A stretch of DNA of 64,000 nt, taken from positions 81,388 through 145,387 of the forward strand of contig JAOZFI010000006.1 of NCBI GenBank assembly GCA_027491395.1. The letters are read 5' to 3'. The notes beneath the pieces are model-generated. The model was given only the letters and a program-made list of their open reading frames with translations, made no database searches and had not been told where the DNA came from. How positions within the stretch are numbered: the first letter of the stretch is position 1; each line of letters begins with the position of its first letter. A program made the translations under genes and the position numbers. Below, one piece after another: positions 2,354 through 46,293 of the stretch. Origin of the DNA: Thermoproteota archaeon. Its GTDB lineage: Archaea > Korarchaeota > Korarchaeia > Korarchaeales > Korarchaeaceae.

Positions 2354-3451
2354 ATGGTAAAGACGACAGTCTCAGTCATCAAAGCCGATATAGGTGGTCT
2401 GGCCGGGCATCACGTGGTTCACCCCAAGCTCAAGGAAGTAGCTGCTCAGGAGCTGTCTAAAGCCAAAGACTCTAGGCTTATAGAGGATTTCTACGTGACG
2501 GCAGTAGGGGATGACCTTCAACTGATAATGACACACAGGAAAGGAGTAGAGAACCCCGAAATCCACGAACTGGCTTGGAATGTTTTCAAGAAAGGTACTG
2601 AGGTGGCGAAGGAGTTAGGACTCTATGGTGCGGGACAGGACCTCCTAAAGGATGCGTTCTCAGGAAATCTAAAGGGCATGGGACCTGGAGTGGCTGAAAT
2701 GGAGTTCGAAGAGAGGCCATCTGATCCTTTAATTGTGTTCATGGCGGATAAGACCGAACCGGGCGCCTTCAACCTCCCCATGTTCCGGATATTCGCGGAT
2801 CCCTTCAACACAGCCGGCTTGGTTATAGACCCTAGGCTCCACGACGGTTTCATATTCGAGATAATGGATGTGATGGAGAGCAAGGTCGTGGAGATGTCCT
2901 CTCCGGAGGAGATGTACGACATCCTCTCCCTAATCGGTACTCCAGGCAGATATGTGATACGCAGGGTGTTTAGGAAGTCCGATAGAGAGATAGCAGCCGT
3001 GGTCAGTACAACTAGGCTGAACCTGATCGCTGGCAAGTATGTGGGTAAGGACGATCCCGTAGCTATAGTTAGGGCGCAAAGCGGATTTCCGGCGCTAGGA
3101 GAGGTGCTCGAACCCTTCTCGTTCCCCTTCTTGGTAGCTGGCTGGATGAGAGGATCTCACCACGGTCCCCTCATGCCCGTCTCCGAGGCCGACGCGAGGC
3201 CCAGTAGATTCGATGGCCCTCCCAGAATAGTCGCCTTAGGATTCCAAGTGCAGGACTCCAAGCTAATAGGACCGAGCGATCTCTTCTCTGATGTGGCCTT
3301 TGATGAAGCTAGGAGAATGGCCAACATGATAACTGACTACATGAGGAGGCACGGTCCCTTCATGCCACATAGACTCGGACCCGAGGAGATGGAGTACACG
3401 ACATTGCCCAAGGTACTTGAGAAATTGAAGGACAGGTTCAGGCCCGAGTGA
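2354..3451 (+). CDS. fbp: Bifunctional fructose-1,6-bisphosphate aldolase/phosphatase (class V FBPase)
   Basis: SVIKADIG, VGDDLQL, LYGAGQDLL, YVGKDDP, GWMRGSH, MEYTTLP motifs. Confidence 0.96.
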   Translation: MVKTTVSVIKADIGGLAGHHVVHPKLKEVAAQELSKAKDSRLIEDFYVTAVGDDLQLIMTHRKGVENPEIHELAWNVFKKGTEVAKELGLYGAGQDLLKDAFSGNLKGMGPGVAEMEFEERPSDPLIVFMADKTEPGAFNLPMFRIFADPFNTAGLVIDPRLHDGFIFEIMDVMESKVVEMSSPEEMYDILSLIGTPGRYVIRRVFRKSDREIAAVVSTTRLNLIAGKYVGKDDPVAIVRAQSGFPALGEVLEPFSFPFLVAGWMRGSHHGPLMPVSEADARPSRFDGPPRIVALGFQVQDSKLIGPSDLFSDVAFDEARRMANMITDYMRRHGPFMPHRLGPEEMEYTTLPKVLEKLKDRFRPE

Positions 3452-36573: not shown

Positions 36574-37872
36574 ATGTGGAAATTCGGTGAAAAGACTCAC
36601 TTCATAAGAGAGCTCCGAGATCTTCCTGAGGGAGAACGCGTTAGGATAGCGGGCTGGGTGTACAGAAAGAGCGAGCTGGGAGGCGTGGTGTTCATACGAC
36701 TTCGAGACTCCACAGGTGTTGTCCAAGTGGTGGTGAAAGAGGGAGAAGTTGGGCAAGACGATCTAGAGCGCGCCAGGAGCGCGGGCATCGAGGCATCCTT
36801 GGTTGTGGAGGGCAAGGTGAAGAGGGATCCGAGGTCCCCCACGGGGGTCGAACTTCTAGCCTCCAGCATCAAGATAGTCGGCTCCTCTCACGACTTCCCG
36901 ATAAAACCTGACTCTGGTGAGGAGTTCCTGCTAGATAACAGGCATCTCCATCTCAGGACTACTAAAATGAGGAACGCCCTTTTGATCAGAAGGGAGGTCA
37001 TGAGAGCCGTTGAGGAGTGGTTCATAACCAACGGCTTCGTCAGGGTTGAGGGCCCGACCTTCGTGGGAGCTGCGGTTGAAGGAGGGGCCACACTGTTCGA
37101 GGTACCTTACTTCAACAGGAAGGCATATTTAACCCAAAGCTCTCAATTCTACCTAGAGGCCGCCATATTCGCGTTCGAGAACGTGTATACAGTACAGCCT
37201 AGCTTCAGAGCAGAGAAGTCCAGAACTAGGAGGCATCTGACCGAGTTCTGGCACGCCGAGGCGGAGATGGCTTGGGCCGATCTCAAGGGCATGATGGATG
37301 TGGTCGAATCACTGCTCAAATATGTCTCCCAGAAGGTGGTGGAGAGAGCTGGTCATGTGTTAGAAGCCCTAGGCAGGAGATTCGAACCTTTGGAAGGAAA
37401 CTTCCCGAGAATCACGTACGATGAGGCATTGGACATAGCCAAAAGAAAGGGCGCATCCATAGAATGGGGGGAGGATTTCGGGACCGAGGTGGAGAGGGCC
37501 ATCTCGCTCGAATTCGATCTACCTGTATTCGTGACCCACTATCCGAAGCAGGCCAAGGCCTTCTACCACAAACCAGATCCTGAGAGGCCTGAAGTGGTCC
37601 TCTGCGCTGACCTATTGGCACCAGAGGGAATAGGTGAAATAGTGGGAGGAGGTCAGAGGATAGAATCCGAGGAAGAGCTCCTCAAGAGGATTAGAGAGGA
37701 GGGGTTGAATCCTTCAGACTACAAATGGTACATAGACCTCAGGAAGTACGGCAGCGTACCTCACTCTGGCTTCGGCCTAGGAATAGAGAGGACGATAAGG
37801 TGGATAGCCGGCCTACCACACATAAGGGATGCGATACCCTTCCCGAGGACTCCGACAAGGCTCTATCCCTGA
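36574..37872 (+). CDS. asnS: Asparaginyl-tRNA synthetase
   Basis: VEGGATLF, YLTQSSQFYLE, FRAEKSRTRRHLTEFW, YGSVPHSGFGLGIER. Confidence 0.93.
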   Translation: MWKFGEKTHFIRELRDLPEGERVRIAGWVYRKSELGGVVFIRLRDSTGVVQVVVKEGEVGQDDLERARSAGIEASLVVEGKVKRDPRSPTGVELLASSIKIVGSSHDFPIKPDSGEEFLLDNRHLHLRTTKMRNALLIRREVMRAVEEWFITNGFVRVEGPTFVGAAVEGGATLFEVPYFNRKAYLTQSSQFYLEAAIFAFENVYTVQPSFRAEKSRTRRHLTEFWHAEAEMAWADLKGMMDVVESLLKYVSQKVVERAGHVLEALGRRFEPLEGNFPRITYDEALDIAKRKGASIEWGEDFGTEVERAISLEFDLPVFVTHYPKQAKAFYHKPDPERPEVVLCADLLAPEGIGEIVGGGQRIESEEELLKRIREEGLNPSDYKWYIDLRKYGSVPHSGFGLGIERTIRWIAGLPHIRDAIPFPRTPTRLYP

Positions 37873-38531
37873 TCCTCCACATCCTCCAACTTCGCCTCTT
37901 TCACCCGCTTGAAAGGCGTGTTCAGGACCTCTTGGAGTTTCCTAGCCTTGGCCTCGCCCACCACCCTCCTCAACCTATGGAAATCAGCACTAAAAACGTC
38001 TCTTAGCGTTCCAAACTCGTTTAACAACTTCTCGGCTGATTTAGGACCTATAGAGGGAAAGCTCACGAGGATCGCGTAGGCCTCCTCCCAAGACTTCGGC
38101 TTCCTCCTCTTTTTGACGGGTATTATAGAGGGTCTGTCCCCCTCAACCTTCTTGGATAGGTAGGCCAGAAACTTAGCCGTATCCTCGGGGGATGTGACGT
38201 GGATGACTGAGACGCCTCTCAGGGCTAAGGAGGAGAGAGCCCCCAAGTAATGAGGGACAGCATTTCGTCTGATATGGAAATAGGGCTCCTCTATGACTAT
38301 TACGATGATCTCACAGTTAGTTCTCATTTGCTCAACCTGATCGAATAGTCTACCGTCGTAGATGGACTTGATGAAATCGTTCAGTGATTTTCTTTCGACG
38401 CAGACGTTGGTGCCAATCAGATAATCCGATACCTCTATTCTCCTCCTCTCAACGACCACCCCTTGCTTTCTAAGCAGTTTCTCTATTAGTTCTGGCTCTC
38501 TATCATCCATGATTATCCTCAATGTCCTCAC
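37863..38531 (-). CDS. xpf: XPF/ERCC4 structure-specific endonuclease (short form, nuclease plus HhH)
   Basis: DDRE, SDY, VERKSLNDF..SIYDGRLFDQ, PSIGPK. Confidence 0.9.
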   Translation of the reverse strand: MRTLRIIMDDREPELIEKLLRKQGVVVERRRIEVSDYLIGTNVCVERKSLNDFIKSIYDGRLFDQVEQMRTNCEIIVIVIEEPYFHIRRNAVPHYLGALSSLALRGVSVIHVTSPEDTAKFLAYLSKKVEGDRPSIIPVKKRRKPKSWEEAYAILVSFPSIGPKSAEKLLNEFGTLRDVFSADFHRLRRVVGEAKARKLQEVLNTPFKRVKEAKLEDVEDQG

Positions 38532-40215
38532 CGCTGAGCCATACGCCCCTTATCTCCTTAATTAGTTCCCTACTCTCCTCAGCTGAGTCAGAGCCCTCCA
38601 GCTCATCTAATACCATCCTAACGGCACCGCTCTCCAAGTAGGTGGCCCTTCCCCTGACTATCACTTCCCGACCTATCATCTCTCTCGCTATTTTATCAGT
38701 TGGTACGGAGTGAGAGGGCTCCCCCAACTCATCAGCTGCCTTTATCACATCCTCAGTGCTCATTCCCAGTATCCTCTCGGCCCTGTCCCTGAAGGCCACG
38801 ACCCTTGCTATTCCCGTCCCATCATCTATTGTGAATGTGAGGTAGAGCAGCGGGGTGGCTCTCTCCAACTCACCGCAATTGGGACAGTGAAATCTACCAT
38901 ACTCAAACTCTACACGCGCACCGCAGTTAGGACAGTGCCAAGTCACTCTAGCAGTGTCGGAGAACGAGATGATTGTCCCCCTGAACTCCCTTAGGCCATC
39001 AGATGATTCGCCTATCCACATCCTCCTATACTTTATCCTCTTAGCTGCCTTTTCCAGTTTGGGAGGAATTGGCTGCGCAATCTTCTCGAGAATTTCAACC
39101 GTTCCGGATCTACTGAGGACGACTATTCCATCATTGTCAGTGTATACTGGCCCAAACCTGAGCCTAAAGGGAGGGGCCTCCTCGGCCAGCAGGTCAGCCC
39201 AATCTCCCCATACTCTGAGGATCTCTAAAGAACCATCGACCTCGACCAGTAAGTCGAGGAATTTCCTACCCTTGGTTCCTATCTCCTCCAAGGGGAATGA
39301 GAAGAGAACCGTGCCCTCCAGCATTCCGCTGCTACCCTCTTCTGACACTTCCAATTTAGTGAGCGGCGTGGAGTGAAGCTCTAGTGAGTCGTCCCTCATG
39401 ACTACTCTAGCACCTGTGAGAATAACGGTAGATCCCTCCACGATCCCATCCGTCAGGGAGGCCTTATCTCCCCAGAGAACAACCCTAACCATATCTCCTT
39501 CCTCATCCCTTAGTAAGAAGGAACTCCTCCTCCCGATACTACCATCGCTTCTGGTGAATTCTGAGACAGGATAGACCCTAACAACCGTCCCCTTGAAATC
39601 AACAACATCACCATCTTTATCGTAGAGCTCCCTCACCTTCAGGATTTTCCTCTCCTCTACTGGAAGATCCTCATAACCGCCGGGTAGGACCTCTATATCT
39701 GACCCGGAATCGAGATGCAGGGCCACCCTACCGAACCTCTCCGAGACCCGCGCGTTAGTCACCTTGATAACATCGCCCTCCCCTATCTCCCCTTTACGTA
39801 TCCTGTCGACCAAGCTCTTTGACCAAACGATGACATCTATATGCCCGGTCTCATCTGCCAGTTTGAACTCCGCCCTCTCAGATGGCTCTCCTCTTCTGTT
39901 GATGTAGCTGAGTATACCGTACATTCTCACTATCTTTCCTTGGACGGTGGCTTTCCTCATACCGGGAACTAGCTTGCTGATCTTGATTGTTGGGTAGTGG
40001 ACCTGCTCGTCTTTGGTTACTTGACCCACATCGAGCTCAACGGCTATGAGGGAGAGGGCACCATCGGGCTTAACGAGACCCTTCATCTCCTCCACGTACT
40101 TCCTTACCCTCTCCAGCACCTCTTCCACTGTAAGGCCTGCCTTGGAAGCCACTAACCTCACTTTCTCCATGAACTCCTCGTCAAAGCCCTCATCGCGTCC
40201 AGCATCCAACCTCAA
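38503..40215 (-). CDS. rpa: Replication protein A-like ssDNA-binding protein (multiple OB folds plus Zn finger)
   Basis: LADETG..VIVW, LRDEEG..VVLWG, CPNC..CPNC, IDDGTG. Confidence 0.85.
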   Translation of the reverse strand: MRLDAGRDEGFDEEFMEKVRLVASKAGLTVEEVLERVRKYVEEMKGLVKPDGALSLIAVELDVGQVTKDEQVHYPTIKISKLVPGMRKATVQGKIVRMYGILSYINRRGEPSERAEFKLADETGHIDVIVWSKSLVDRIRKGEIGEGDVIKVTNARVSERFGRVALHLDSGSDIEVLPGGYEDLPVEERKILKVRELYDKDGDVVDFKGTVVRVYPVSEFTRSDGSIGRRSSFLLRDEEGDMVRVVLWGDKASLTDGIVEGSTVILTGARVVMRDDSLELHSTPLTKLEVSEEGSSGMLEGTVLFSFPLEEIGTKGRKFLDLLVEVDGSLEILRVWGDWADLLAEEAPPFRLRFGPVYTDNDGIVVLSRSGTVEILEKIAQPIPPKLEKAAKRIKYRRMWIGESSDGLREFRGTIISFSDTARVTWHCPNCGARVEFEYGRFHCPNCGELERATPLLYLTFTIDDGTGIARVVAFRDRAERILGMSTEDVIKAADELGEPSHSVPTDKIAREMIGREVIVRGRATYLESGAVRMVLDELEGSDSAEESRELIKEIRGVWLSGEDIEDNHG

Positions 40216-41252
40216 ACACCCGAGCTCTCCACCTCAACAATCGACGGTCTATCTAACCCACCCTCCACTCTAAACTTAACCGGTAGGAATTTCTCCACCA
40301 GCCATATATTACTTTCAGCATGCAGGGTCAACCTTGAGATGCCTATTCTCGACCTTCCCGAGGCTATTGCCAAGTAGGGGATTATCATATCACCTGAATG
40401 ATTGTCAAAAGCCATCCCGGTATCTAACTCCTCCAGCAACTTGGTTGCAGCGTTCTTCCCGACTGCCTCACTCGGCTTACCCCTCTCTCCAAGATCGTCA
40501 GCGCCTATAACTGGCTTACTTTCGGTCCAGAGGACTATGCCGGCACCCGGACCGAGATGCCTGTCTTGAGACCAATCCTCCTCTATGAACACCTTGAACC
40601 CCTTGCCCTCCAATAACTCGCTCGCTGCCCTGATCATCCTCTTCGTGATATGATTAGGTAGCTTGACCGCGTGCGCTCTTCCTCTGATTAGAGAGATGTC
40701 ATCCCTCTTCACCCTACTGAGACCTGAGAGGTCCGATGGCCACACCCTCAGCTCCACCAGTCCGCCGCCCTTTGGATAGTGGCCCCTCCTGATCAGTCTA
40801 ATTTCTGCATGAGCTCCCATCATGGTGAGATTCGGGAGAAAGACCTCTCTCATATAGTCGATGGGAGGTGCCATGGGGACATCCGTTCCCCCCCTAATGA
40901 GGAACCTCACATCACTGTCAGATGTCAGGCAAGCTGGCAACAACGCTTGAATCACGAGAGTCACGCTTCCAGCTGTACCTATGTCTACCTCAAATGATCC
41001 CCCTCTCTTATTCTTGGGTACGAAGAGCACTCTAGTGGAACCCACCCTAGCTCCTTCCACGTGAGCTTCCGTTAGCTTAGCGAGGGCCATCACGGCATTG
41101 AGATGCTGCGGTCTGAGGCCTGGTTTCTTCCTCTTGGCCCTTATATTGTACACCTCAACAGGCTTGAGCGTGACGGCAGACAGGGATAAGGCGTATCTTA
41201 GTATGGATCCCCCACCTTCTCCGTAACTTCCATCTATCCTTATCAGCTCCAT
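40212..41252 (-). CDS. rtcA: RNA 3'-terminal phosphate cyclase
   Basis: IDGSYGEGGG, PGLRPQHL, GGTDV, RGHYPKGGG, TLHAESN. Confidence 0.95.
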   Translation of the reverse strand: MELIRIDGSYGEGGGSILRYALSLSAVTLKPVEVYNIRAKRKKPGLRPQHLNAVMALAKLTEAHVEGARVGSTRVLFVPKNKRGGSFEVDIGTAGSVTLVIQALLPACLTSDSDVRFLIRGGTDVPMAPPIDYMREVFLPNLTMMGAHAEIRLIRRGHYPKGGGLVELRVWPSDLSGLSRVKRDDISLIRGRAHAVKLPNHITKRMIRAASELLEGKGFKVFIEEDWSQDRHLGPGAGIVLWTESKPVIGADDLGERGKPSEAVGKNAATKLLEELDTGMAFDNHSGDMIIPYLAIASGRSRIGISRLTLHAESNIWLVEKFLPVKFRVEGGLDRPSIVEVESSGV

Positions 41253-41319: not shown

Positions 41320-41961
41320 ATGGCGGGGACGAAGATTAAGTTCGTCATAGAGGAGGTGGACGGTAGATACGTGGGAATTGGAGTTGGTGGAAGGGAGCTC
41401 TACTGCAATACGATCCCCCTCCCCTCCAAAGAGGAGGCAGAGGCCGACCTGAGAGCTACCTGCTACTCGGCGTGGGGGGATTCATTGGATCTAGTGCCAG
41501 AGTATCACATACCCTCAGCTTACGGATTGGCCCTCCTTATAAGTAAGCTGTTCTCCGGCGAGAGTACAGATCTCTCCGGAATCAGACTGGCCCGCCATCC
41601 CCGGGACAAATTTTGGAACGCTATCTTGCTGATGAGCTCAATACCGAGGGGCATGGTAACAACCTACGGGGAGCTGGCGAGGGCCTTGGGCACGTCGCCG
41701 AGGGCCGCTGGAAACTATGCCTCTCGAAACCCGTTTCCGCTCATAGTTCCCTGCCACAGGGTGATAAGGAGCGACATGAGGATAGGGGGCTACAGCTACG
41801 GTCCCATACTTAAAGCATCACTGTTAATTGCAGAAGGTGTGAAGGTGGACTTCGACACAGGTAAGGTAGATCCCTCAAGGGTGATCAGATCCGAGGATTT
41901 ACTGTCCCTTAAGGAGGTGCAGGGAATTGTCAGTTACCACCAAACACGTCTTCGCATCTGA
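41320..41961 (+). CDS. ogt: Methylated-DNA--protein-cysteine methyltransferase
   Basis: IPRG..TYGELA, RAAG, NPFPLIVPCHRVI, GGY. Confidence 0.92.
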   Translation: MAGTKIKFVIEEVDGRYVGIGVGGRELYCNTIPLPSKEEAEADLRATCYSAWGDSLDLVPEYHIPSAYGLALLISKLFSGESTDLSGIRLARHPRDKFWNAILLMSSIPRGMVTTYGELARALGTSPRAAGNYASRNPFPLIVPCHRVIRSDMRIGGYSYGPILKASLLIAEGVKVDFDTGKVDPSRVIRSEDLLSLKEVQGIVSYHQTRLRI

Positions 41962-43210
41962 CTTCGGTACTTCATACTACAAGTTCGGGCCTTGGTGGCT
42001 CATGAAGACCGGTCCCGACATGGTAGAGAACAGGGGGTACTTTCCGAGGATATCGAAGCTCTCGGCCGAGGTCAGGGGCATAAAGTCTAGGGAAGTAGTG
42101 GTGGGTAACGAGGTAGCAGAGTACTTGGAGTCTAGAGCTGACCTATCTAGGCTATATTATCCCATGAGAAATGGCATAGTGGAGAGAGGGGATGAGAGGG
42201 GCTGGAAGGTTATAAAGGAGCTCGTGAGATACGGGCTTCTCAAATACCATCCCGGAAGAACGGATTCTACTGGAGTTCCCTTCCATGGCTTCTTCGTAGT
42301 CGCATCGCTAGCTGCCCAAGCACCCACCTACATGTACGAGAGGATGTTTGAGATCCATAGGGAGGTGAACGCCGAGGAAGGAGGTGGCCTCGTGAGGGCG
42401 GTCACTATAATACCACAGCCGCTAGCTGTTGCTATAGCGGAGAAGGCGGTAACATGCATCGTGGTTGAAGCTGGACATGGAAACACCCAGATAACGCCCA
42501 TAAGCAGGGACGTAATCAAGGCCGCCTTGATTCCCCTCAACAGGGGAGGAAGCGACTCGGACAGGATCGCGGCCCAGATACTGAAGGATCTCGGTTACTC
42601 CGACTTAGCTAGGGAGGAGAAATTCGTCCGTATATTCAAGGAATCAGTGGGCCTCCTTCCCTTAGACGTAGATAAAGCCGTATCCTGGGCGAAGGATCAT
42701 CCCAGCGCGTTGCAGTCGGTCTTCCGCATTCCCGGTACTACCGTGGAGGTGGACATGGGAGATAAAGCGTGGCAGAGGTTCCTCATCGGCGAGTTCTTCT
42801 TCAATCCCGGACACGAGATCTTCGAGAGCTACTACTCTAGGGGCTTTACTCCCCCCAAGGACACTCTAGTGGGAGGTGAAGTAATCCCAGGGGATGTGAG
42901 CCTCGCCGAAGCCCTGAGGGAAGCCATTTCCAAGACCCCTGTTGAACTACAATCGTCCATAGTTAGGCACGTTATACTATCGGGAGGGGCCTTCAACTGG
43001 CAAGTCCCCAAAGGATTGGAAGGGATAGCTACGGACTCGCCGACCAAGCTTAAGGTGATGATGAAATCCGTGGGTCTGGAAACCGGTCCCAAGATGGTCT
43101 CAGACCCTCAGTTCAGCGTGTGGAGAGGAGCCGTAGTCTACGGATTGGCAGTCGGGGAAGGAATAAAGTGGGACTGGGGAAAAATGGAGGGCTGGTTCTA
43201 CGTGGAATGA
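41927..43210 (+). CDS. Crenactin (archaeal actin homologue)
   Basis: Phosphate-1 SDFGTSYYKFG, YPMRNGIV, PQPLAVA, phosphate-2 VEAGHGNTQITPI, adenosine ILSGGAF, SVWRGA; GGAGGTG RBS before TTG. Confidence 0.92.
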   Translation: MSVTTKHVFASDFGTSYYKFGPWWLMKTGPDMVENRGYFPRISKLSAEVRGIKSREVVVGNEVAEYLESRADLSRLYYPMRNGIVERGDERGWKVIKELVRYGLLKYHPGRTDSTGVPFHGFFVVASLAAQAPTYMYERMFEIHREVNAEEGGGLVRAVTIIPQPLAVAIAEKAVTCIVVEAGHGNTQITPISRDVIKAALIPLNRGGSDSDRIAAQILKDLGYSDLAREEKFVRIFKESVGLLPLDVDKAVSWAKDHPSALQSVFRIPGTTVEVDMGDKAWQRFLIGEFFFNPGHEIFESYYSRGFTPPKDTLVGGEVIPGDVSLAEALREAISKTPVELQSSIVRHVILSGGAFNWQVPKGLEGIATDSPTKLKVMMKSVGLETGPKMVSDPQFSVWRGAVVYGLAVGEGIKWDWGKMEGWFYVE

Positions 43211-43923
43211 ACCATCTCTTGGAATTGGATGGCATTCTCGAAGCTAAAATAGGAGTTATTGAATAGTACGTAGTTCTCCCTCAAGGACCACTTCTCCACG
43301 ATCTCCCTAAGCTTCTCTAATTCCTCCTGACCGTACTTGTGAGAGTAAACAATCTTCTTTCCCTCCTTCCTCCCATGCAGTCTATAATACCGAATCTTAC
43401 CGTAAACAGGAACTTCGTACATGGGGTCTACAACATGGGAGATACCTAGGTCCTCCAGCAGATCCCTGAACTCCGGGCTCTTGAACCAACCAGCCTCTCT
43501 GACCTCCCATGTCAGCAGGAAATCCCCTGATATGGCTGAGAAGAACTCTCGCGCGTTGGTGAGATTGACCTCGTTGAATTCGAAGGAGGGCGGGCTTTGA
43601 AAAACTACAATATTAGCTCCGAGCTCCTTCACTAGAGTCCTGAATTCCTCCCAAAGGTCGAAGTTCTCCTTGGTGGGCTTTAGCGACCCGTAAGAGTCTT
43701 CCTTAGGAAGGCCCGTCTTATCCCATATCCTGCTCTTGGGATCGTGGGTGAAGGCCATCCAGGCCTTTACGGTGAATTCAAAGTCTTTAGGGGATTCTCC
43801 ACGCCATTTTCTTAAAGTTTCAACCTTTGGAGGTTTATAAAATGTCTTTTGGATCTCCACCAACCTGAGTTTCTCGTAGTACTTCTTCCTAGAGACCTGA
43901 AACCCGCAGCAACCCACCTTCAC
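43198..43923 (-). CDS. DUF72 (YecE-like) TIM-barrel protein
   Basis: VGCCGF, VEIQKTFY, FEFTVKA, FQSPPSF, WEVR, YYRLHG, YVLFNN. Confidence 0.9.
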   Translation of the reverse strand: MKVGCCGFQVSRKKYYEKLRLVEIQKTFYKPPKVETLRKWRGESPKDFEFTVKAWMAFTHDPKSRIWDKTGLPKEDSYGSLKPTKENFDLWEEFRTLVKELGANIVVFQSPPSFEFNEVNLTNAREFFSAISGDFLLTWEVREAGWFKSPEFRDLLEDLGISHVVDPMYEVPVYGKIRYYRLHGRKEGKKIVYSHKYGQEELEKLREIVEKWSLRENYVLFNNSYFSFENAIQFQEMVHST

Positions 43924-45005
43924 GGTAACAGATATCCCCATTTCTCCACTATCGCCTCCACATCCCTATCCCTTCTAATTACTGATAAGAGGTTTTCACC
44001 CCTCATGAAAGAGTCTAGCACCTCCCTCATGGATCTAACTCCAGCTAAGATCCCTCTGGGGTGATCATATATTCCTAGATCCCCGTTGAGGATCACCTGC
44101 AGGTCCTCAGGTACGTTAGCGATGGCTATTCCCTGATGGACTTGGGGAGCAGTCAACGGCATCGCGGCGTCCTTCCCACCTCCTATGATTTCGTCTAGCT
44201 CCATAACGATTCCCAAATCTTCCCGCTTCCACGCCACGGGTCTCTCAATCAGATCAAAGCCACTAACCCTTAGGAGCTCGTAAGTGGCTTTAATTCCCAG
44301 ACCTACCTCTCTAATGAGGCAGTTCACCCCCCTCGCTGCTAAAAATATGTCATCTAGGAACTCGATCGCAAGCTCAAGCCTGCCTAAATCCCAGCACAGA
44401 TGAACGTAAAATCCCCTCATCCCCAAGGAGATGGCGCGCTCTAGGTCTTCCGAAGATGTAGGAAGTCTCATGAAGTACAACACCCGCCTTCCTTTCTCCT
44501 CTTTTATTCTATCGGTGATTTCGACTATTTGATGAGCCCTATCTAGGTAGGGAGAAGCCTCCTTGTCCATTAAATTGAGAGGATCGAAGCCCACGTGAAG
44601 ACCAGCTTTACACATCTCCCTAAATAATCTCGCATGCGAGAGAGGATGCAAAACAATATTTTTTCCTACTGAGGCCGCCACACCAGGTCCTCTCAGCCCC
44701 AAATACTTCTTCAGTCCAGATTTACCGGGAATAGGGGGTCTCACTCTGTCGAGAGGAAATTCAACGCTCTTCACCTCACAGATCAGGGGGAGATGCTCCA
44801 ATAGCGATCCCACCGCATAGTATACGGATGGAAGGAGGAGATCCCCGCCCACCAATTCCTCGGGTAGCTCGATGATGTATCGGTACTTCCCTACCTCCTC
44901 CAGCTTTACCCTCGCCTCTACCTCTCCTTCTAAGTCTGTTGGTACAGACGTCTCTTCCAAGGACTTTTTACACTTGAGTTCCAAGATCAAGACCTTTTCA
45001 CCCAC
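43920..45005 (-). CDS. Highly divergent RuBisCO large-subunit-like protein lacking catalytic residues
   Basis: Colinear with form III RuBisCO (P..GKSGLKKYLG; SPYLDRA..DRIKEEKG..LY; GIYDHPRG..AG..MR; EKWG end), but KDDE reads FDPL. Confidence 0.75.
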   Translation of the reverse strand: MGEKVLILELKCKKSLEETSVPTDLEGEVEARVKLEEVGKYRYIIELPEELVGGDLLLPSVYYAVGSLLEHLPLICEVKSVEFPLDRVRPPIPGKSGLKKYLGLRGPGVAASVGKNIVLHPLSHARLFREMCKAGLHVGFDPLNLMDKEASPYLDRAHQIVEITDRIKEEKGRRVLYFMRLPTSSEDLERAISLGMRGFYVHLCWDLGRLELAIEFLDDIFLAARGVNCLIREVGLGIKATYELLRVSGFDLIERPVAWKREDLGIVMELDEIIGGGKDAAMPLTAPQVHQGIAIANVPEDLQVILNGDLGIYDHPRGILAGVRSMREVLDSFMRGENLLSVIRRDRDVEAIVEKWGYLLP

Positions 45006-45057
45006 ATTCGGTCATTACCCGGGGTTCCCTTAAATGATTCCGGTGTAGGTATGTCCG

Positions 45058-46293
45058 ATGCCGGAAGAGGTGGAAGTGCCGAGGGGTAAGGGAGTGTTAG
45101 TGAGGTCACCAGCCTATATTAAACCTCTAAGCGGCAACATTGAAGTTTGGGGTGCCGAGTTCGATGAGATATCGGTTCAGATGGACGGTGTAGAGCTACT
45201 AATCACATCCTCAATCGATTCGAAAGTGGCTATAGATGGACACTACGTGAAGTTAGAGAACCCCATCCCGGACTGGTGGGAAGAGCTTCCTGAAACCGTA
45301 GCAGGCAAAAATACCATGTTCATAGGAAGAGTAGACTCCGGCAAGAGTTCCACGGTAGTTTTTACGATCAACAGGATAGTAGGGAGCGGTAGCGCAGTCT
45401 CCATAATCGATTCAGACGTTGGCCAGTCTGATCTGGGACCACCTGGGGTGATCTCCAGCAAGGATGTGGGAAAGCCCGTCATCCACACCAAGTTACTGGA
45501 ACCTGACTTCATGTACTTCATCGGCGACAAGACACCAAGCGGTCATTTCCTCCCGATGGTGAAGGGACTTCTAGAAGCTTTGAATAGATCTAGGAGCGAT
45601 ACAGTTCTAATAAACACCACGGGTTTCGTGGATGGAGGGGCAGCTAGGGCTCTAAAGAGGTTCAAAGTCGAGTTCTTAGATCCAGATATCGTAGTGCTGA
45701 TAGAGAAGGAAGAAGGGGACTTGAATCACATTGCTAAGACAATTCCCAAAGATGTAAAGGTTCTAAAGGTTAGATCACCAGTAGGAGATCTGGCCAAAAG
45801 CAGGAATTACAGGATCGCCGTAAGGAGGGCTCTACTCAGGAGATACCTATCTGGCGCCGCTACGAGAAAGTTTGACCTCCGGGAGATTGAGCTGATGAAT
45901 ACATTCCTCATGACCGGCAAGGCGAAGGACGAGTACATCCCATTTTTGGAGCGCATCTTAGGAGCGAGAGTTCATTGGATGGAGGAGTCCCCCGACATGC
46001 TCATAGCGATCACGGAAAGCGAAGTAGATAGGAGGAAAATTGCGATGCTCTCAGGGCTCTTGAACAAGGAGGTGAGAATAGGCCCAATGATTGTATACAA
46101 GGGACTTTACGTGGGCCTTATCCGAGGGAGGGGGTGCAAGGGCGTCGGCATAATACAATCAATGGACATTAGGGAGGGTTGGATGAGCGTCTTAACCAAG
46201 TATGAGGGACCACTAGATGGAATTGCACTGGGATACATCAGGTTTAATGCTGAGGGCGAGGAACTCGGCTCAAGGGGGATGAACGTTCCATGA
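45058..46293 (+). CDS. Clp1/Grc3/Nol9-family polynucleotide 5'-kinase
   Basis: GRVDSGKSS, DSDVGQSDLGPPG, INTTGFV, R..R..VR lid. Confidence 0.88.
   Translation: MPEEVEVPRGKGVLVRSPAYIKPLSGNIEVWGAEFDEISVQMDGVELLITSSIDSKVAIDGHYVKLENPIPDWWEELPETVAGKNTMFIGRVDSGKSSTVVFTINRIVGSGSAVSIIDSDVGQSDLGPPGVISSKDVGKPVIHTKLLEPDFMYFIGDKTPSGHFLPMVKGLLEALNRSRSDTVLINTTGFVDGGAARALKRFKVEFLDPDIVVLIEKEEGDLNHIAKTIPKDVKVLKVRSPVGDLAKSRNYRIAVRRALLRRYLSGAATRKFDLREIELMNTFLMTGKAKDEYIPFLERILGARVHWMEESPDMLIAITESEVDRRKIAMLSGLLNKEVRIGPMIVYKGLYVGLIRGRGCKGVGIIQSMDIREGWMSVLTKYEGPLDGIALGYIRFNAEGEELGSRGMNVP

Follow-up and report, generated by a model that had tools for sequence, protein, structure and literature searches.

The window, a stretch of 64,000 nucleotides from a Thermoproteota archaeon, carries on its minus strand an open reading frame (ORF) with the RuBisCO-large fold (positions 43920..45005; 361 aa counted from the GTG at 45005) from which the catalytic set has been stripped. 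The kinship of this ORF with RuBisCO is well beyond chance. We consider it fairly probable that the product of the ORF is an inert, lineage-specific form III-type RuBisCO paralog, with a non-catalytic binding or scaffold role, and that the DUF72 gene beside it became its neighbor by deletion.

RuBisCO fold and catalytic columns

PF00016 matched the RuBisCO-like ORF at 29.5 bits (E 5.6e-07), which is 0.6 bits under the curated cut-off of 30.1, and the best NCBIfam match was TIGR03326 (form III). In a phmmer search against the PDB, 22 distinct chains were retrieved at E<=1. These included form III RuBisCO (8dht, 2e-11; 6hun, 2e-10) and an enolase (2oej, 1.1e-08 over residues 80-358). With a profile built from the orthologs, 118 superfamily proteins were found at E<=0.001. 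The AF2 model of the protein (pLDDT 73.1, pTM 0.80) was then compared with known structures by Foldseek. There were 381 matches at E<=0.001, and the top matches were all RuBisCO or RuBisCO-like proteins (RLPs). To form III RuBisCO, the probability was 1.00 and the TMq 0.65-0.68; for 6hun, the E-value was 4.9e-16 and the TMq 0.65. The model and the Foldseek matches show a shortened N-terminal alpha+beta domain and, after it, an alpha/beta barrel of eight strands. Thus, phmmer and Foldseek agree with the sequence-only reading, in which the ORF had been judged by eye to be colinear with form III RuBisCO, and the fold match whose absence would have spoken against that reading was found.

The catalytic sites were read from three independent alignments, which concur on the catalytic columns except that K115 and R225 are ambiguous by one column. 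The K-P-K site of RuBisCO reads S112-V-G-K-N116 in the RuBisCO-like protein. The carbamyl-Lys/Mg site reads F140-D-P-L-N-L145, and the columns of K201, D203 and E204 are F140, P142 and L143 in all three alignments. The H-R-A site (H294) reads A224-R-G226, and the H327 site reads D251-L-I-E254 with E254 at the H327 column. The two phosphate loops (S-G-G and G-G-G) read T285-A-P-Q288 and D309-L-G311, with an Asp in the place of a phosphate-loop Gly. The N-domain loop with E60, T65 and W66 is missing, and S67 stands at the N123 position. The sole possible catalytic match is K115 (for K175); it depends on the alignment and is Leu in 3 of the 11 orthologs. H315-P..G..A-G322 and E354-K-W-G357 are retained. 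Since the Mg/carbamyl site, the His, the phosphate loops and the N-loop are lost, the canonical binding of Mg-carbamate and of ribulose bisphosphate is not open to the protein. A frameshift, or catalytic motifs lying in a shifted register, was also considered and was rejected on the agreement of the three alignments. The motifs read by eye in the sequence-only reading were all correct in the window residues, as were the shortened N-domain and the persistence of the scaffold elements HP.G..AG and EKWG.

In a tree made with FastTree only and containing long branches, the ORF and its relatives form a monophyletic clade (local support 100), apart from the true form III RuBisCO of the same lineage. 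The branching within the clade broadly tracks the genera, and a basal member still possesses the K-P-K site and the N-loop. None of the 22 clade members carries K201. Among 86 superfamily matches outside the clade, in contrast, K201, D203 and E/H204 are all kept in 62, and all three are absent in 3. This bears out the earlier statement that the degeneration of the ORF goes beyond that of most RuBisCO-like proteins. The catalytic columns are replaced in all members of the clade, which is confined to one archaeal lineage, vertically inherited and, as judged from the sequences, inactive throughout. It is a metal-site-less variant of the RuBisCO-like proteins, most likely a non-catalytic one. One clade ortholog is recorded under Candidatus Korarchaeota, and the NCBI product name of one ortholog is "hypothetical protein". 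No description of the clade was found in the literature on RuBisCO-like proteins, pseudoenzymes and Korarchaeota, where supplementary tables may list such matches. The accessible text of two Korarchaeota papers mentions only above-threshold form III rbcL.

Conservation, gene order and pathway loss

The RuBisCO-like gene is under purifying selection and is not decaying. In the genus to which the window genome belongs (the window genus), it is present in 10 genomes, and the frame is intact in 10/10 carriers, as had been read in the window. The 10 orthologs, at 44-91% identity, share 94 invariant columns. The dN/dS values were 0.095, 0.100 and 0.140 at unsaturated dS (0.43-0.70), and those of the neighboring genes were 0.10-0.11 (Clp1) and 0.07-0.12 (DUF72). 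Thus, the dN/dS check proposed in the sequence-only reading gave about 0.10 with orthologs at hand, not a value near 1 without orthologs. The gene is among the fastest-evolving of the neighborhood: its product retains 45% identity, against 84% for crenactin. At the barrel strand ends, many polar residues are invariant within the genus (D141, D206, R225, E254-R255, H290 and D309), their placement at the barrel mouth being derived from the strand boundaries of the model or from sequence position. Across the whole clade, R255 is found in 11/13 and D309 in 10/13. Other residues shared specifically by the clade (R105-G106, F128, D331 and R335-G336-E337) are located away from the barrel mouth.

The gene is dispensable, since 11 of the 21 genomes of the window genus lack it, and four of those 11 are 99% complete. 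In the gene-less genus-mates the excision is clean, with no remnant of the gene in the spacer of 160-180 nt. The four gene-less genomes that were placed on a Clp1 tree form one clade, and the subclade to which the window genome belongs retains the gene in all of its 9 genomes. Since the gene-less genomes form one clade, the absence fits one old deletion and not ongoing decay. A second, independent loss was observed in two genomes of another genus (G035 and G036).

The DUF72 family gene (43198..43941, minus strand, 247 aa) lies downstream of the RuBisCO-like gene on the same strand and encodes a xylose-isomerase-like TIM barrel. PF01904 matched it over its full length at 140.8 bits (cut-off 25.3), and a PDB profile search matched it to 1vpq (9.5e-16). 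Its AF2 model (pLDDT 86.2) retrieved 1vpq by Foldseek, followed by sugar isomerases/epimerases and UVDE. For this family, the accessible part of PMC11791011 suggests a link to DNA repair. The two genes overlap at 43920..43941 on the minus strand. The stop codon of the RuBisCO-like ORF, TGA at 43922-43920, lies inside the sequence GTGA, and DUF72 may start either at the GTG at 43923 within it (4-nt overlap) or at the ATG at 43941 (22-nt overlap). Both ORFs of the sequence-only reading, and the overlap at GTGA that it described, were thus borne out. Since the orthologs of the RuBisCO-like protein begin 5 residues later (356 aa), its translation probably begins at the TTG at 44990 and not at the GTG at 45005. 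On the other side, a short divergent spacer (45006..45057) separates the ORF from a Clp1-type P-loop kinase gene (45058..46293, plus strand). The head-to-head arrangement of these two genes is retained through the archaeal family. In the window genus, the RuBisCO-like gene and the DUF72 gene are probably co-transcribed.

Outside the window genus, the clade gene stands beside a gene for a bona fide ribose-1,5-bisphosphate (R15P) isomerase (TIGR00511, 420-443 bits, cut-off 314). The two genes are adjacent and convergent (tail-to-tail) in 12 of the 13 non-genus genomes having a clade member, and in the thirteenth (G001) the locus is interrupted by a contig end. The 12 genomes include one of a second family (G007), with differing flanks. 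In these genomes, form III RuBisCO and AMP phosphorylase are located elsewhere. This ancestral link to the isomerase had been missed in the sequence-only reading. In the window genus, form III RuBisCO, R15P isomerase and AMP phosphorylase are over cut-off in 0/21 genomes, and in the rest of the family they are found in 14/15, 13/15 and 14/15 genomes, respectively. True RuBisCO was found neither in the window genome, which is 98.4% complete, nor in the 21 genomes of the genus, and genomes of the window type have no supply route for ribulose bisphosphate. These results show that the window genus has lost the whole pentose-bisphosphate (AMP) pathway, and that about half of its genomes keep the inactive paralog. 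The accessible part of a preprint (10.1101/2023.09.28.559970) arrives independently at the same loss, with deoA, e2b2 and rbcL dropping out in a Korarchaeota ancestor.

Role of the paralog and alternative explanations

In the sequence-only reading, the paralog was coupled to DUF72 as a candidate undescribed system. A functional two-gene unit, working as a complex or in consecutive steps, would suit the arrangement in the window genus, where the genes are adjacent on the same strand with overlapping stop-to-stop frames in 10/10 carrier loci. Since the DUF72 barrel resembles sugar isomerases/epimerases, a sugar-phosphate link is conceivable, and DUF72 comes next after the isomerase gene in three other genera. 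However, DUF72 is present in 5/5 checked genus-mates without the paralog, and in the four gene-less genus-mates where Clp1 was found it directly abuts Clp1. In the sister genera, the isomerase gene sits between the paralog and DUF72; in genus g5, the paralog has no adjacent DUF72 in 4/4 loci; and G035 and G036 have the isomerase and DUF72 with no paralog. Thus, the two genes are not lost together, and each was found without the other. Since the 13-kb region is syntenic throughout in these relatives, the adjacency has little independent weight. A complex prediction for the two proteins scored 0.00 in two runs, which were made with no controls and for which the verdict of the tool was "no answer"; it carries no weight either way. 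On the distribution and order of the genes, a two-gene unit is very unlikely; our verdict is against a system of the RuBisCO-like protein with DUF72, and the overlap of the two genes looks like the product of a gene deletion. A non-catalytic role as partner or regulator, either of true RuBisCO or of R15P isomerase, would account for the isomerase adjacency in 12/13 non-genus carriers across two families, the more so as the isomerase-adjacent genomes also possess real form III RuBisCO. However, neither partner is present in the window genome or its genus, where the gene is still under selection, and in G035 and G036 the isomerase persists with the paralog gone. Moreover, since the paralog and isomerase genes are convergent, they are not on one transcript. 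Such a partnership is excluded as the sole role here, and we give it almost no credence. The earlier proposal of a regulatory subunit of a true RuBisCO was likewise rejected for the window organism, since no RuBisCO is present in its genome or in the genus (0/21).

The gene might instead be a relic on its way out, a functionless leftover of the lost pathway that has not yet been deleted in one subclade. The absence of the pathway from all 21 genus genomes, the clean excision of the gene from 11 of them, the second loss in G035 and G036, the eroded N-terminus and the fast divergence are all in line with this. We nevertheless regard it as distinctly improbable, because the dN/dS of 0.095-0.14 at unsaturated dS equals that of Clp1 and DUF72, the frame is intact in every carrier, the 94 columns stay invariant down to 44% identity, and the gene-less genomes fall into a single clade of the Clp1 tree while the subclade of the window keeps the gene in all 9 members. 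The same selection (dN/dS about 0.10) would be expected of a re-tooled enzyme, in which a new carbamate-free acid/base or metal site, with D141, D206, R225, E254, H290 and D309 as candidate residues, would catalyze a different reaction, perhaps on a metabolite derived from pentose phosphate. All eight strand-end loops of the barrel hold invariant residues across 44-91% identity, R255 and D309 are conserved clade-wide, and other RuBisCO-like proteins, such as the 2oej enolase, are generally known as enzymes with new chemistry. However, apart from R255 and D309, none of the clade-wide specific residues is at the barrel mouth, and E254 and R225 are not retained in all sister genera. In addition, every known active member closes its site with the N-domain loop that is deleted here, and Asp stands in the place of a phosphate-loop Gly. 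A re-tooled enzyme is thus rather unlikely. The invariant polar residues at the strand ends are also compatible with a rebuilt catalytic site. We hold with little confidence that the RuBisCO barrel was rebuilt to a site without carbamate or Mg, used for a new reaction or for specific metabolite binding; if this were true, it would be the first function in the RuBisCO superfamily without the K-D-E metal site, and the origin beside R15P isomerase and the selection after the loss of the pathway would both be explained.

We favor a catalytically inert paralog with a binding or scaffold role. The clade gene is linked ancestrally, tail-to-tail, to R15P isomerase. The window genus has lost the pathway, and the isomerase gene dropped from the locus, by which the stop of the paralog was brought onto the DUF72 start; DUF72 would thus be a neighbor by deletion and not a partner. 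The protein would have a binding or scaffold function without catalysis, probably as a dimer as its relatives are, and this role would depend neither on RuBisCO nor on the isomerase. It may act through the remodeled barrel mouth (D141, D206, R225, E254-R255, H290 and D309) and/or through a C-terminal surface, for which D331 and R335-G336-E337 are the clade-wide candidates. The pseudoenzyme proposed in the sequence-only reading stands in part: the gene is intact, selected and stripped of its catalytic set, but the coupling to DUF72 and the role as a RuBisCO subunit fall away.

The clade discarded the carbamate-Mg site entirely, yet stayed beside the enzyme that makes the substrate of RuBisCO. 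In one genus, the gene has outlived RuBisCO, the isomerase and AMP phosphorylase under purifying selection. The clade is therefore a natural test of what the RuBisCO scaffold is capable of without its chemistry. It also has a bearing on surveys of rbcL by homology, which can mistake such paralogs for RuBisCO or pass them over under the name "hypothetical protein".

Comparison with known systems

The downstream ORF resembles the DUF72/TM1631 proteins (1vpq and 1vpy), with a full-length Pfam match and a Foldseek E-value of 4.8e-12 to 1vpq. The RuBisCO-like protein shares with archaeal form III RuBisCO (6hun, 8dht and 1geh; TIGR03326) the two-domain fold, the H-P-x-G motif and the terminal W-G, and in the sister genera its clade is likewise tied to genes of the pentose-bisphosphate pathway. 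However, it reaches only 44.4 bits against the TIGR03326 cut-off of 497.45 and is about 60-90 residues shorter. Unlike in bona fide RuBisCO (forms I-III), K201/D203/E204, H294, H327, the phosphate loops and the N-loop are all replaced or deleted.

Characterized RuBisCO-like proteins keep the carbamate-Mg site, and in them the fold has been recruited to new chemistry. Six RLP clades are reportedly named, with a residue table, in Tabita et al. 2007. The form IV enolases MtnW/YkrW (2oej and 2zvi) have the RuBisCO fold, match the ORF at comparable E-values and act as enolases without carboxylation. However, 2oej keeps K-D-D-E where the RuBisCO-like protein reads F-D-P-L. The scores of the ORF against the form IV models were 27.8 bits for TIGR03332 (cut-off 513.6), 38.7 for NF007095 (409) and 34.5 for NF042437 (700), and the ORF belongs to a separate clade on the FastTree tree. 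Methionine-salvage genes are not next to the RuBisCO-like gene, and an MtnA-type isomerase is on another contig. A methionine-salvage enolase was rejected on these scores far below the cut-offs, on the missing metal site and on the location of the MtnA-type isomerase.

Divergent "form IV-like" RuBisCO homologs have been described from phages and Beckwithbacteria (Jaffe et al., bioRxiv 10.1101/386292). In an atlas search, the nearest feature neighbors of the protein included a RuBisCO-like cluster in which Uroviricota is the most frequent phylum. Going by the description in the accessible part of the preprint, the key residues of those homologs are highly divergent, as they are here. The homologs described there differ in lineage and context, the clade of the window being archaeal, vertically inherited and tied to R15P isomerase.

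Fold and catalytic positions of the RuBisCO-like ORF

The RuBisCO-like ORF is located at 43920..45005 (-) and encodes 361 aa with a GTG start. The DUF72 ORF is located at 43198..43941 (-) and encodes 247 aa with an ATG start (PF01904, 140.8 bits; cut-off 25.3). The stop/start frame overlap described in the sequence-only reading is present, the TGA of the paralogue (43922-43920) lying within GTGA. DUF72 may start at this GTGA or at an ATG 18 nt upstream of it. Since the orthologues begin five residues later, the true start of the RuBisCO-like ORF is probably the TTG at 44990.

Single-sequence profiles matched the ORF weakly (PF00016, 29.5 bits, cut-off 30.1; TIGR03326, 44.4 bits, cut-off 497). 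In a phmmer search of PDB sequences, it matched 8dht, a form III RuBisCO (2e-11), 6hun (2e-10) and the enolase 2oej (1.1e-08). The AF2 model, with 11 orthologues in the alignment, had a pLDDT of 73.1 and a pTM of 0.80. When this model was used for a structure search, 6hun was matched (E 4.9e-16, TMq 0.65) and the top matches were all RuBisCO or RuBisCO-like protein. Thus, the kinship with the RuBisCO large chain is secure despite the weak profile scores.

The catalytic columns were read from HMMER alignments, from MAFFT with six form III-type sequences and from L-INS-i, and all agreed. The K-P-K segment is replaced by K115-N-I, the carbamyl-Lys/Mg segment by F140-D-P-L, H-R-A by A224-R-G, H327 by E254, the S-G-G loop by A286-P-Q, the G-G-G loop by G308-D-L and N123 by S67. 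The N-domain loop with E60/T65/W66 is deleted. In contrast, the solved enolase 2oej has an intact K-D-D-E segment where the window protein has F140-D-P-L. K115 may be the sole residue matching a catalytic one (K175); it moved one column in a further alignment, and Leu is found there in 3/11 orthologues. R225 could be equivalent to R295 if shifted one column. These results show that the window protein retains the RuBisCO scaffold and has none of the groups on which binding of Mg, CO2 and both ribulose bisphosphate phosphates depends.

Selection and the inactive clade

A word-indexed search of 5490 candidates gave 10 orthologues (44-91% identity, 347-362 aa); ten genomes of the window's genus carry the gene. 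When aligned, the orthologues share 94 invariant columns, among them runs specific to the family near residues 151-159, 249-256 and 330-337. By the Nei-Gojobori method, dN/dS in the three closest pairs (dS 0.43-0.70) was 0.095, 0.100 and 0.140 for the RuBisCO-like ORF, 0.113, 0.104 and 0.107 for Clp1, 0.121, 0.074 and 0.102 for DUF72, and 0.011-0.036 for crenactin. A decaying gene had been considered, with dN/dS near 1 and no orthologues; the range of 0.095-0.140 and the 10 orthologues contradict it. The RuBisCO-like ORF is a real gene under selection.

With the orthologue profile, a full HMMER scan detected 118 proteins at E<=0.001, and the profile matched 23 of the 43 genomes available for the phylum. 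The nearest matches (P0011-P0016 and P0024) likewise lack the metal site. In a FastTree analysis of 108 rows, 22/22 near relatives formed one clade (local support 100). The genuine form III RuBisCO of the lineage falls outside this clade, within which branching broadly follows genera. Since the tree has long branches, which are liable to cause artefacts in FastTree, this placement is provisional. The basal protein P0012 retains K-P-K and the N-domain loop, with Val at the carbamyl-Lys position, and may represent an intermediate stage of degeneration. NCBI names one orthologue 'hypothetical protein [Candidatus Korarchaeota archaeon]' and the sister-genus members 'RuBisCO large subunit C-terminal-like domain-containing protein'.

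For comparison, 86 superfamily proteins outside the clade were taken from the orthologue-profile search, a set biased to this family's neighbours. K201, D203 and E/H204 are all kept in 62/86; K201 is absent in 19/86 and all three residues in 3/86. Within the clade, K201 is present in 0/22 members. These counts support the claim that the protein has degenerated further than is usual for RuBisCO-like proteins. Clade-wide residues that true RuBisCO does not have are R105-G106, F128, G139, R255 (11/13), N297, D309 (10/13), D331 and R335-G336-E337 (13/13). Only R255 and D309 are at barrel strand ends, and the invariant D-x3-R-G-E run sits in the C-terminal helices.

A third gene of the RuBisCO family (410-440 aa; TIGR03326, 167-287 bits) occurs in some genomes of the lineage: G042:C8:181-1401, G002:C21:47795-49009 and G023:C9:4524-5693. 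The protein P0012 is grouped with these. In G042, this gene and the inactive paralogue are about 10 kb apart.

Locus states and loss of the pentose-bisphosphate pathway

In other genera of the family, an IF-2B family gene lies immediately downstream of the paralogue in convergent orientation. This neighbour is ribose-1,5-bisphosphate (R15P) isomerase (TIGR00511, 420-443 bits; cut-off 314). By comparison of coordinates, the arrangement occurs in 12/13 carriers outside the window's genus; the 13th, G001, gave only a weak match interrupted by a contig end. G007, from a second family, has the pair though its other flanks differ. The genomes with the pair possess a true form III RuBisCO elsewhere (e.g. 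G011 contig 2, 668 bits) and AMP phosphorylase.

Five locus states were observed beside Clp1. In seven genomes of three genera (state a), the paralogue and the isomerase converge and DUF72 follows in the direction of the paralogue. In G035 and G036 (state b), the paralogue is lost and the isomerase, still in reverse orientation, lies between Clp1 and DUF72. In 10/10 carriers of the window's genus (state c), the paralogue and DUF72 overlap in the same direction. In four 99%-complete genus-mates (state d), Clp1 is followed by DUF72 across a 160-180 nt spacer, in which no paralogue remnant was found. In 4/4 loci of another genus (state e), the convergent pair is followed by crenactin and DUF72 is not adjacent. 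Thus, the paralogue, isomerase and DUF72 vary independently, and the proposed coupling to DUF72 is not supported. State a minus the isomerase is exactly the window's gene arrangement; judged from gene order, DUF72 is probably a neighbour of the paralogue by deletion. Because the TrmB-to-XPF region is wholly syntenic among these relatives, the adjacency within the genus has little independent weight.

In a Clp1 tree that covers 4 of the 11 non-carriers of the genus, these four state-d genomes form one clade (SH-aLRT 100) and the nine carriers another (87), so that one deletion is enough to explain the four. Clp1 and the isomerase of G035 are about 600 nt apart at the site where relatives have the paralogue (locus L047, G035:C16, bases 2404-3002), and tblastn at E<=1e-3 found no paralogue remnant in this gap. 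The G036 gap is only about 30 nt. In G017, a genus-mate without the paralogue, Clp1 beside DUF72 matched as four fragments in differing registers (locus L041, G017:C35, bases 72-1149), and a whole-protein search gave no Clp1; a broken Clp1 gene or a fault in the assembly may explain this.

The DUF72 model is confident (pLDDT 86.2) and resembles solved DUF72 proteins, then sugar isomerases/epimerases, then UV-damage endonuclease. In PMC11791011, DUF72 is noted in the vicinity of archaeal PolB2, and a part in DNA repair is suggested for it. The most conserved gene nearby (dN/dS 0.01-0.04) is crenactin at 41927..43210 (+) (NF053560, 622 bits; cut-off 630). The end of a 213-aa gene, 41320..41961 (+), overlaps the crenactin start; judged by eye from a Cys-His-Arg-Val segment, this gene encodes a putative DNA alkyltransferase-like protein. 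Three successive overlapping ORFs of 222, 570 and 346 aa at 37863..41252 (-) are taken, also by eye, to be a putative XPF/Hef-type nuclease, a large RPA-like OB-fold protein with a zinc ribbon and an RNA 3'-phosphate cyclase. With the Clp1-type kinase (45058..46293, PF16575), the region appears to hold many genes for nucleic-acid end processing.

Over curated cut-offs, form III RuBisCO, R15P isomerase and AMP phosphorylase were each detected in 0/21 genomes of the window's genus, against 14/15, 13/15 and 14/15 in the rest of the family. The sole related isomerase in the genus, encoded on another contig, is MtnA-type; the copy in the window's genome reaches 378 bits with the methylthioribose-1-phosphate isomerase model and 210 bits with TIGR00511. 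No PF00016 match besides the RuBisCO-like ORF was found in that genome (98.4% complete). These results show that the paralogue is under selection in a genome with neither the known route to ribulose bisphosphate nor the capacity to carboxylate it. A preprint on Korarchaeota evolution (10.1101/2023.09.28.559970) infers independently that deoA, e2b2 and rbcL were lost in a single ancestor; in the accessible parts of this preprint and of a 2026 paper (PMC12787533), rbcL is counted only above threshold.

In two incomplete MAGs, one in-frame TAA each was observed in a form III RuBisCO match (G010:C25:8494-9207) and in two IF-2B-family matches (G001:C207:7713-8621 and G001:C3:7069-7998), one of which exceeds the R15P isomerase cut-off. 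Sequencing errors, pseudogenes or contig-end effects could account for them.

Possible role of the inactive paralogue

A pairing of the Asp that replaces part of the phosphate loop with an Arg beside the former H327 position would be expected of a closed or re-purposed pocket, and the conservation of the C-terminal surface points to contact with a protein. With the scaffold kept, the binding groups gone and selection persisting without the pathway, we lean towards a non-catalytic binding or scaffold role, which would have begun near the pentose-bisphosphate pathway and later become independent of it. The identity part of this statement is near certain; the statement as a whole is somewhat better than an even bet.

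A rebuilt catalytic site would fit the invariant polar residues in every strand-end loop within the genus, and we consider it unlikely. That the gene is dispensable, having been lost at least twice, would suit a relic awaiting deletion; a dN/dS of 0.1 opposes this, and such a relic is distinctly improbable. Given the independent variation of the genes, a functional unit of the paralogue with DUF72 is very improbable. Partnership with RuBisCO or R15P isomerase is excluded as the sole role in the window's genome and has hardly any probability.

No description of the inactive clade was found in the accessible literature on RuBisCO-like proteins and Korarchaeota. Both RuBisCO-like proteins and highly divergent 'form IV-like' sequences have been described before, and the inactive clade appears to be new. 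To a RuBisCO specialist, the vertically inherited clade without a metal site would be notable, as would its constant position next to R15P isomerase and its persistence once the pathway was lost.
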